From Chrysomallon squamiferum (Eukaryota > Animalia > Mollusca), in NCBI GenBank assembly GCA_012295275.1, contig CM022678.1, positions 6,262,001-6,326,000 of the forward strand: DNA of 64,000 bases, written 5' to 3'. This document shows positions 60,421 to 64,000 of this stretch, in pieces (the stretch's first letter is position 1; every line of letters begins with the position of its first letter). A model generated the notes under the pieces. That model ran no database searches. It was given only the letters and a program-made list of their open reading frames with translations, and had not been told where the DNA came from. The translations under genes and the position numbers were made by a program.

Positions 60421-60536
60421 CCCCAATCTGAACTAAGAAAATTATTAATTATTCTCTTCCAATAAGCACTTAATTAAATCCGACAGGAATCTGAATGATA
60501 TAAATGTGATGTAAAACTAAAGGGTTAAACAGATTT
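60421..60536 (+). promoter_or_regulatory. Core promoter of the micro-exon gene
   Basis: CCAAT at ~60423 and ~60459, TATAAA at 60499-60504, Inr-like CAGATT with A at 60531 (32 nt after TATA start). Confidence 0.55.
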
Positions 60537-60568
60537 TGAACACAGAAGTGAAAGAGTAACATTACTTG
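60531..60568 (+). other. Predicted 5'UTR exon of the micro-exon gene
   Basis: Ends in TTG|GTAAGT (donor at 60569). The next exon starts after an acceptor at 61041-61042, so an upstream exon is expected. Confidence 0.55.
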
Positions 60569-60907
60569 GTAAGTGAAAATTTCTTATTTATGTCCATATA
60601 TATGTACATGCGTACATATGTGCGTGTATTTACTATATGTATCTATAAAATGTGTATCTATATGTGTTTGTATGTATAAATATGTATGCATGTATTTTCG
60701 TATGTGTATACATACATATATATATATATATATATATATAAACACACAAACACTTACATATATAACTATGTCTGAGTGTGTGTGTGTGTGTGTGCGTGCG
60801 TGTGTGTGTGTGTGTGTTTTTTGATTTTTATATATCGAAAACAATAAAATAATAGCATTGAAATATAAACAATTTTTGTTCTCACCAATTATCGCTGACA
60901 TCACTTT

Positions 60908-61036
60908 TATATTATTATTATTATTATTATCATTATTATTATTATTATTATTATTATTATTATTATTATTATTTTTATTATTATTATTATTATTATTATT
61001 ATTATTATTATTATTATTATTATTATTATTATTATT
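60908..61036. repeat. (TTA)n microsatellite directly upstream of the acceptor
   Basis: Seen directly. Confidence 0.95.
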
Positions 61037-61066
61037 TTTCAGGAAGAAAGATAACAAATAGCAAGC

Positions 61067-61118
61067 ATGAAGCTGTTTCTAGTTGTCGCCCTTCTTGTCA
61101 CAATGACCTTCGCAACAA
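61067..61118 (+). CDS. Signal-peptide exon (exon spans 61043-61118)
   Basis: ttttcAG acceptor; AGCATGA start context; MKLFLVVALLVTMTFAT (basic N-end plus hydrophobic core); donor A|GTAAGC, phase 1. Confidence 0.9.
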
Positions 61119-63726
61119 GTAAGCTTTTAAAAATAAATTAAAATTAAAACATTATGAGATCGCCACAAAATACAGTTTTCTAATAAACTATATATGTTTA
61201 TCTGTTGCCTGTTTATTATTATTATTATTATTATTATTATTATTATTATTATTATTATTATTTTATTATTATTATTATCATCATGATTTGAAATAATCAC
61301 TTGTTTTAAGTACATTTATAAAATGGTATTACAGAATCAAGAATCTAAATTAATGTTTTATTTATTTGTGTCCATGCGCATTTATTTATTTATTTATTTA
61401 TTTATTTATTTTTCAGGTTCTGCTTTCTCAAGCAGTAAGTATTTCAAAATCACTGTTTCAATCTCTTGATAGTTGGAAGTGTTCCAGTTGCTACACAGAT
61501 TTCTTTCTTCTTCCTTGAATCTTACCTGTAATGTTTACTAAAATCACTTGCAACATTCTAGATGTCTTTAGTAATGCCAGAAATCAGTGAACATCATACA
61601 AATGTGTTTTAATGGCGTGCCTGCTTTTTAGAATAATAATAGATTATAATTATACTGATATGACTGCGTTCAAAAGCTGCATAACTGTATCTGCATAATG
61701 ATATGTTGGTCTGATTATCTCTAAATCAAGTTTCGGTCATTCTAAAGCCGGTGACTGGTATGGTAGACTTTAAACACTGTTCTTGATGATGTTAGAACTT
61801 AGTGCCAGCATTTCGTATTGTTCTAGTAAATGTAAAATGCATTTAGCTAAAATAGAAAGTTTCATTTTGGTTTATTTCCGTCATAATATTTTATGGATCT
61901 TAGTTTAAAGAAAACTTTAATACTTTATATCAGTGATGGCAAAAAATTAAAATCTTGCGAAACAAAAATTCGGAAAGTAAAAATCGATATATTTTATAAC
62001 TGTAGTCAAGAAATGATTTTCATTCAATAAATTGTATATTTGTTTTTGGTGAATTTACATAAAAATATCAAATATAGTTGCTAAATCTGATTATACCATT
62101 TATTATATTGATTGGGATTGACTGGGATGTTTTTTTTACAATTTTTACATTTCATATAATTATATTTATAGTGACAAATTTTATTTTATATTTTTAGGTT
62201 CTACTGGAGCAACAGGTAAATGATTAAACGTAAAAAGCAATAAAAATACAAAAATAAGATATTAAATAACCTTTTCTTTGAGTCGTTTTATTTTTGCCTA
62301 TTTCTACTAAAATATGTTTAATATTCCTCAACTGAACTGTTTTTTTATATTTTTTTGTGTTTTTTTCTTTTTGATAGGAAAATGTGGTTAGTTGTCTTCC
62401 AGTAAACACATAAACAATTTTTATTAGTTTTTAATCAAAGAAATTTTTCTTTTGCTTATTTTTAATAAAATATATTTAATATTCCTCAATTTGATTCATA
62501 ATTTCATTTTATGTTTATTCTACTATTAGTGTCTTTTTGTGTACCATCTTCCAGAAAATGTTTAAATAATGTTTACTGTATTGAAATTATATATAAATCT
62601 AAAACACAAACAAATTCTAAAAAGTAATATTATTTATACCTCTCTTCTTTTTAACACTTTTACATTTCATATGACTATATTTATTGTTATTTTACATTTT
62701 TCAGGTTCATCTCCAACATCATGTAAGTTATTAGATAAAAAATAAAATAAAATAAAAATAAAAATAAATAAATAAGAAATACAAAAATAGATATACGTAT
62801 CTTAATAATCCTTTCTAAGAAACGAGCTATTTTTTAAACTGTTTTTACATTTCATATAATAATATTTACACTAAATAAATGTATTACTGTTGTTGCTGTT
62901 GTTGTTATTATTATTATTATTCTTATTATATACATGTCTGTATTTTCTGAATAAATAATAAATACATTTATTTTATGATTAAATCCTTTTTTAAATCCTT
63001 TTTTTTTTTTTTTTTTTTTTTTTTAGTTTCGTCAGGGTCAACAGGTATATTATTATTTATTATTATTATTATTATACAAGCGATAAAAAGACTACAGATA
63101 GACAGATAGATAGAGAGATAGACAGATATATTAATTGATATATAGATAAGTAACCTATTCTCAGAAAGGTTTTGTAATTGCTTTGTTCTAATAAAATATC
63201 TTTAATATTCGTCAAGTTGATTAATAACTTTAGAATTTCATATTCTATTGCGGTCACTTCCAAATAGCATTATTTCATTAAAGAATTAAATAAAGTTTAA
63301 AATCTGCAAATTATATAAAAATCTAAAACACAATAAAATGACATGATTAAGTAAGATATGCGTTTCAAAATAAATTACTTATACTTCTCTTCTTTAAAGT
63401 ATATAATTTATAGTTTTCATGCAGTTATATTTATTTTATTATTATTTCTTTTTTAAAGGTTCATCAGGAACATCAGGTACATTATGATTATTATTATTAT
63501 TATTATTATTATTATTATTATTATTATTATTATATACATGAATATCAACAGGTTAATTATTACATATATAAAGCAGCAAAGAATACAAGTTAGATACATC
63601 TGTTCTGTGAATGATTTCGTTATAACTCCTTTCTGAAACAATATGTTTAATATTCCTCAGTTTGAGTAATAATTTTATTCTATTTGTATTTTGTTGCAGC
63701 ATCTTCTGGCACTTCCGGCACTTCCG
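61067..63726 (+). CDS. Micro-exon gene encoding a secreted Ser/Gly/Thr-rich protein (3'-partial): join(61067..61118,61417..61434,62198..62215,62705..62722,63027..63044,63459..63476,63700..63726,>)
   Basis: All introns are GT-AG and phase 1, every internal exon is a multiple of 9 nt, and there are no stops. Translation MKLFLVVALLVTMTFATSSAFSSSSTGATGSSPTSFSSGSTGSSGTSASSGTSGTS (56 aa so far). Confidence 0.88.
61417..61434 (+). CDS. Micro-exon 1, 18 nt (SSAFSS; likely signal cleavage after SSA)
   Basis: tttttcAG|GTTCTGCTTTCTCAAGCA|GTAAGT. Confidence 0.9.
62198..62215 (+). CDS. Micro-exon 2, 18 nt (SSTGAT)
   Basis: tttttAG|GTTCTACTGGAGCAACAG|GTAAAT. Confidence 0.88.
62705..62722 (+). CDS. Micro-exon 3, 18 nt (GSSPTS)
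   Basis: tttttcAG|GTTCATCTCCAACATCAT|GTAAGT. Confidence 0.88.
63027..63044 (+). CDS. Micro-exon 4, 18 nt (FSSGST)
   Basis: poly-T AG|TTTCGTCAGGGTCAACAG|GTATAT. Confidence 0.8.
63459..63476 (+). CDS. Micro-exon 5, 18 nt (GSSGTS)
   Basis: ttttaaAG|GTTCATCAGGAACATCAG|GTACAT; weaker AAG acceptor. Confidence 0.8.
63700..63726 (+). CDS. Micro-exon 6, 27 nt (ASSGTSGTS)
   Basis: ttttgttgcAG|CATCTTCTGGCACTTCCGGCACTTCCG|GTAAGT; internal 9-nt duplication GGCACTTCC. Confidence 0.88.
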
Positions 63727-64000
63727 GTAAGTATTTAAAACAAATTCAATGTCTTTATATTATTTATATATAAAACTCTAAAACATTAAAATTCATAATT
63801 AATTAAATGAAGCATACTTATTAAAAAGAAGATTAAAAAAAAAAAAACGTCAAAAGCCCCCCCCAAAACACCCAAAAAGAACAAAAAAACCCACCACGTT
63901 ATGTTAGTTTTAAGAAAATATTTTTATTTTTTTCCAGCATTTACAAATATTAAAACAATTTATGTAGTCTTGAAATTATATAAAAATCTAAAACAACATT

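Follow-up and report, generated by a model that had tools for sequence, protein, structure and literature searches.

A spliced chain of 18-27-nt symmetric exons with decayed copies in its introns, predicted to encode a secreted Ser/Gly/Thr repeat protein

Micro-exon genes (MEGs) appear to be restricted to flatworms, and the published accounts describe them as carrying most of their coding sequence (up to about 75%) in very small symmetric exons, with a signal peptide and exon-skipping variants (PMC4350168, PMC4015677, bioRxiv 10.1101/2023.06.21.545858). Skipping variants are described for MEG-1 to MEG-3, and the mature regions of MEGs are reported to evolve fast relative to the signal peptide (PMC4350168). 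Here we analyzed a gene of comparable design at the 3' end of a 64,000-nt stretch of DNA (contig CM022678.1, positions 6,262,001 to 6,326,000; hereafter, the window). At a probability of roughly 0.6, we read it as a spliced gene for a secreted, O-glycosylated and disordered Ser/Gly/Thr (S/G/T) repeat protein, whose exon array arose by tandem duplication of an exon together with its intron, accompanied by exon loss.

As in the Schistosoma MEGs described so far, very small symmetric exons follow one another in introns of 0.2-0.8 kb, here after an exon predicted to encode a signal peptide, and splicing at the micro-exon borders was found. The gene differs in that skipping is described in the MEGs and none was seen in the one RNA contig here, and in that the introns here are visibly duplicated and contain fossil exons. 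In the multigene family SmPoMuc, which varies in copy number, a 27-bp exon is described as duplicated with introns in units of ~1 kb that are kept >93% identical by concerted evolution, next to 13 further exons (PMC2576457). The gene studied here resembles SmPoMuc, as far as the latter has been described, in the duplication of a small exon with introns and in that otherwise similar units carry different exons. The units here are 0.2-0.8 kb long, share blocks of about 75-80% identity, are of mixed types and include several dead ones, and homogenization to >93% was not found in the window. In its architecture the gene resembles both MEGs and SmPoMuc, but we class it as neither.

Two further systems are close in layout. 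The alpha-s casein genes CSN1S1 and CSN1S2 are reported to start with a non-coding exon 1 and to encode the signal peptide in exon 2; many small exons, ranging from 18-24 bp upward, arose by duplication and show allele-specific skipping (PMC12470106). The exon layout and a secreted product would be shared with the gene in the window, but the caseins are mammalian phosphoproteins and no homology is implied. Alpha-s casein introns are in phase 0, compared with phase 1 here. Webspinner e-fibroin and some spidroins, according to the available description, are Gly/Ser-rich secreted repeats encoded in exon-intron repeat units homogenized to about 96%; the genes carry 33-196 exons, have paralogues and vary in exon number between alleles (10.64898/2026.08.07.743568). 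These silk genes and the present one would both produce secreted Gly/Ser-rich repeats from exon units, the one here being Thr-rich.

Exon structure, transcript and predicted product

A preliminary description of the window had proposed a 5' untranslated region (UTR) exon, a signal-peptide exon and six micro-exons. All eight were located in the window sequence at the proposed positions on the plus strand, every one with AG/GT splice sites. Exon 1 (5' UTR; 60446-60568) has a 3' end fixed by the donor GTAAGT at 60569 and an uncertain start, which is 60446 only if 123 contig bases form one exon and ~60530 if the TATA box discussed below is used. Exon 2 (61043-61118; 76 nt) comprises 24 nt of UTR, an ATG at 61067, 17 codons of predicted signal peptide and a phase-1 donor. 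Micro-exons E3 (61417-61434), E4 (62198-62215), E5 (62705-62722), E6 (63027-63044) and E7 (63459-63476) are each 18 nt long, and E8 (63700-63726) has 27 nt with an internal 9-nt duplication. The six micro-exons are phase 1-1 at both ends, have lengths that are all multiples of 3 and keep an open frame, which continues from E8 toward exons past 64000. They have 39-59% GC and are 56% identical in pairwise comparison, and their donors fit the consensus at 6-8 of 9 bases. The introns between the coding exons are 223-763 nt long, as had been proposed, with 15-28% GC. UGC is an SRRM3/4-type enhancer motif; in the inspected upstream flanks of the micro-exons, no UGC at a common position was found.

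The joined frame in the window encodes 56 amino acids, and 31 of the 36 residues after residue 20 are Ser, Gly or Thr; our recomputation of this content and of the frame left open at the window edge gave the same values as the preliminary description. Of the 169 coding nt that fall within the window, 117 (69%) lie in micro-exons, including all coding bases after codon 17.

Evidence of transcription was sought in four sequencing runs compared over 61040-64000: three RNA runs labelled metatranscriptomic (X2, X3 and X4) and one run whose kind was not recorded (X1; 34% of words). A single RNA contig, contig 11 of X3 (346 nt, depth 4.2), joins pieces that match 61044-61120, 61419-61436, 62702-62722 and 63697-63729, with exons linked at their AG/GT borders as the proposed splicing predicted. 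The junctions E1-E2, E2-E3, E3-E4 and E4-E5 are directly shown by this contig, and three further junctions are deduced from length. E3, E5 and E8 show 0 differences, and the 13 inner letters of E4 are present between the contig pieces. A 33-nt gap plus 3 nt gives 36 nt, the combined length of E6 and E7, and ends like E7; this match is one of length, not letters. Inclusion of E6, which has its splice signals, is thus deduced from the gap length, and that of E7, also with splice signals, from the gap length and the fit of its last 3 nt. All six micro-exons are apparently included in the contig, and the decayed exon copies of introns 4 and 6 (see below) are absent from it. Compared by eye, its 5' loose end agrees with the 3'-terminal 29 nt of E1 at all but two positions (27 of 29). 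The 27 nt of its 3' loose end go on with Gly/Thr/Ser codons, apparently as another 18-nt unit. In exon 2, 5 of the 77 aligned nt are different in the contig and the window. The other two RNA runs held no spliced piece (X2 had two short unrelated matches; X4 had zero records, since its 3 joints and 9 loose ends fell at repeats and were discarded), which is not evidence of absence.

A loose scan for symmetric exon-like pieces of 9-36 nt gave seven matches in 61100-64000, the six exons and one relic, compared with at most three in any of 500 local shuffles. With a background of 0.22 exon-like pieces per kb, the Poisson probability of at least six in 2.4 kb is 1.8e-5; the criteria were fixed after the exons had been seen, hence these figures are indicative only. 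We conclude that the gene is real, a spliced micro-exon chain hidden in AT-rich, repeat-filled DNA.

The start of transcription is less clear. The preliminary description had placed a TATA and initiator promoter upstream of exon 1, and the TATAAA is present at 60499-60504 on the plus strand, but its promoter role is doubtful. It predicts a first exon of ~40 nt, and the X3 contig carries 124 nt before 61044 (the last 30 letters being visible), thus reaching ~80 nt further 5' than predicted; contigs cannot fix a start. Upstream of exon 1, strong pyrimidine-tract acceptor-like sites at 60289 and 59923, together with a short motif repeated near 59981 and 60327, were noted by eye as candidates for an extra 5' UTR exon.

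The N-terminus encoded by exon 2 starts with Met-Lys followed by a hydrophobic core, with hydropathy of up to 3.6 over 9 residues; this resembles a typical signal peptide, and the product is likely secreted. The signal-peptidase site probably lies in E3; its placement follows the -3/-1 rule. From its S/G/T composition, the product is probably O-glycosylated and disordered, and composition alone makes it plausible that it serves in mucus, in a matrix or as an adhesive. The hydropathy and the 3' end of the X3 contig agree with the earlier proposal of an N-terminal hydrophobic stretch and an S/G/T repeat that goes on past the window, and the units in X1 described below are signs of further copies.

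Intron homology and decayed exon copies

Homologous blocks are common to introns 3-7, and are also covered by the repeat families D7 and D17. When pairs of introns were aligned and compared with 60 shuffles per pair, introns 4 and 6 (z = 16.7), 4 and 7 (z = 14.0) and 6 and 7 (z = 10.0) were the most clearly related. Intron pairs 3-5 and 3-4 aligned at z ~6, and introns 1 and 2 reached at most 3.5 and are essentially unrelated. The matched intron blocks of D7 and D17 are 67-77% identical within the window.

Three decayed exon copies were detected on the plus strand within these introns. The first (62378-62401, intron 4; 24 nt) retains its AG/GT, although the donor is weak and a stop interrupts the frame, and aligns with the E8 unit. 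The second (62530-62553, intron 4; 24 nt) has kept its acceptor and an open frame and lost the donor dinucleotide, and scores 109 against the E8 unit over ~165 nt. The third (63254-63277, intron 6; ~24 nt, with boundaries taken from the alignment) has lost both splice dinucleotides and scores 91 against the E8 unit. A fourth relic near 63940 is tentative. When the 65 nt upstream of E8 were used as a query, the next four best matches in the window were the three intronic relics and an upstream relic (~58750), with scores of 70, 57, 52 and 51; the next best score was 43 and the mean 18.8. The donors of the two intron-4 relics fit the consensus at 5 of 9 bases, compared with 6-8 of 9 for the live exons, which fits maintenance of inclusion.

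The upstream relic (58250-58960, plus strand) is collinear with part of the array and consists of an intron-3-like segment, an intron-7-like segment, a 21-nt exon-like piece with AG/GT (58826-58846) and an intron-8-like segment. By blastn, it is 81% identical to intron 3 over 143 nt (E 1e-30) and 77% identical to intron 6 over 65 nt. No signal exon matching that of the gene was found upstream of it. The relic may belong to a diverged paralogue or be a fragment of a pseudogene. It lies ~1.5-2.2 kb 5' of the gene, and a possible dead exon of the 18-nt type was noted near 58659.

Further units appeared in X1, which was treated as DNA-like since it covers introns; its results hold among the matches listed, which were read by hand. 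At least eight X1 contigs span position 62696. Joints in X1 reorder the units, going back by 569 nt or from 63777 to 62154, and one contig has an intron-7-like end followed by a different unit of AG, 18 nt and GT that codes for Thr and Pro. A signal exon in X1 has 15 differences in 119 nt, and the nine listed ones are hydrophobic, small or silent changes. Another X1 contig has 4 differences in 198 nt, of which 2 are in E4 and change amino acids (Fisher p = 0.04, for one comparison chosen after looking). Accelerated evolution of the exons was considered, but this comparison conflicts with the X3 contig, in which the micro-exon pieces shown are identical to the window and the signal exon has diverged.

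The intron homology and the relic units show that a small exon was copied along with the introns on either side of it. Under the origin that we favor, an exon flanked by phase-1 introns would have been copied in tandem with its intron, after which the copies would diverge and some would die. Each live unit would add six (or nine) residues in frame, both flanking introns being phase 1, and units that lost a splice site or gained a stop would remain as fossils inside introns. Live exons would usually all be spliced in, so that variation in length and sequence would come mainly from gain, loss and divergence of units at the DNA level, among alleles and paralogues. The symmetry of all exons would then follow from duplication of the exon and intron unit, with no need for selection for skipping. 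The order of the duplications is inferred.

Several points weigh against this account. The transcript evidence is one RNA contig, at a depth of ~4, from one run of three, and its exon-2 differences mean that its source may be a different allele or a closely related paralogue. The X1 contigs cannot be split between downstream units and paralogues. With the downstream flank of E8 as query, the relics do not stand out (45.5 and 43, compared with 47 for the best background match), and unrelated AT-rich segments score as high as 52, close to some of the intron scores (44-55). Finally, the 3' end of the gene lies beyond the window, and the repeat could be only a stalk before a domain or anchor.

Alternative readings of the array

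The likeliest of the alternatives, though a tentative one, is that the micro-exon run is only the N-terminal part of a longer protein. The run might be a mucin-like stalk ahead of a folded domain, a membrane anchor or a glycosylphosphatidylinositol (GPI) anchor, or else the first part of a long silk-like or glue-like structural protein made up of many exon units. The open frame at 64000, the repeat that goes on in the X3 contig and the many related intron ends in X1 are in line with it. Among the described systems, the Gly/Ser-rich webspinner fibroin genes are reported with 33-196 exons in exon-intron repeat units (10.64898/2026.08.07.743568), and SmPoMuc with a C-terminal region after the repeat exons (PMC2576457). 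However, neither a stop nor an anchor or domain is visible in the window, the 56 amino acids seen include no non-repetitive N-terminal domain ahead of the repeat, and the introns are far less homogenized than those reported for e-fibroin (about 96%) or SmPoMuc (>93%). The duplication model could hold under this reading as well.

We consider it unlikely that the gene is a MEG-type diversifier, in which combinatorial skipping of symmetric exons would let one gene produce a pool of secreted proteins varying by 6-9 residues, for example at an interface with microbes or parasites. The architecture fits the published descriptions of MEGs, all 64 subsets of the six micro-exons keep the frame without a stop (with 12 lengths possible), so that skipping would be tolerated, and the alpha-s casein genes, which have similar small exons, do skip. 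The two amino-acid-changing differences in E4 of the X1 contig (with the p value chosen after looking) and the metatranscriptomic label of the RNA runs may also be counted in its favor. On the other hand, no skipped junction was seen in the one RNA contig, although at its depth minor isoforms cannot be excluded, as contigs drop rare variants. Identical micro-exon pieces next to a different signal exon in X3 are the reverse of the MEG pattern of fast-evolving mature regions, and skipping of near-identical S/G/T hexamers would be expected to alter length more than epitopes. In addition, unit duplication already accounts for the symmetry of the exons, which the preliminary description had taken as a signature of MEGs. 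Since duplicating an exon with its intron yields symmetry automatically, symmetric exons alone are no proof of splicing-based diversity.

A broader proposal, that the gene belongs to an independently evolved non-flatworm family of MEG type encoding secreted S/G/T proteins, combines birth and death of micro-exon units at the DNA level with combinatorial skipping; live, stop-carrying, donor-dead and fully decayed exons would then be intermediate stages kept side by side in one gene. Such a combination seems improbable to us. Last, it is hardly credible that the exons are chance splice-like motifs in AT-rich repeats, or that an intronless DNA copy was taken for a transcript: there is just one RNA contig, its depth is low and RNA libraries can contain DNA, but its exon joints coincide exactly with the AG/GT borders, no X1 joint among those listed falls at these exon junctions, and 0 of 500 shuffles reached the observed count.

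Window context and significance

In the remainder of the window (1-60000), which is microsatellite-rich with 21-38% GC, no neighboring gene was identified from the frames and DNA compared with Pfam and Rfam. Pfam gave 0 matches in 105 stop-to-stop frames (hand-picked, mostly from 132) and Rfam likewise gave 0 matches; a 24-nt motif of the signal exon had 0 matches in JGI metagenome contigs. A minus-strand Thr/Ala-rich frame (59640-59770) after an acceptor-like site was set aside by eye as a degenerate TAG-type microsatellite. Minisatellite arrays with units of 20-90 nt are present at 13105-14425, 25224-25719, 34394-34677 and 42536-42889, and tandem units of 100-200 nt at 19970-20887, 24055-24617 and 26663-27896. 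The exon scans did not pick up a micro-exon cluster in these minisatellite and tandem arrays.

No published description of such a gene outside flatworms was found in a literature search that covered few subscription papers. If the host is not a flatworm, the gene would represent a MEG-like, transcript-supported design elsewhere. As a chain of 18-nt exons without a common upstream UGC position, it could help in studying the splicing of very short exons. Its fossil exons caution against taking symmetric micro-exons as proof of splicing-based diversity. They also offer a testable route of origin, in which a phase-symmetric exon is duplicated with its intron and copies are then lost. If true, the broader proposal of a MEG-type system outside flatworms would provide a direct natural model of how MEGs originate.

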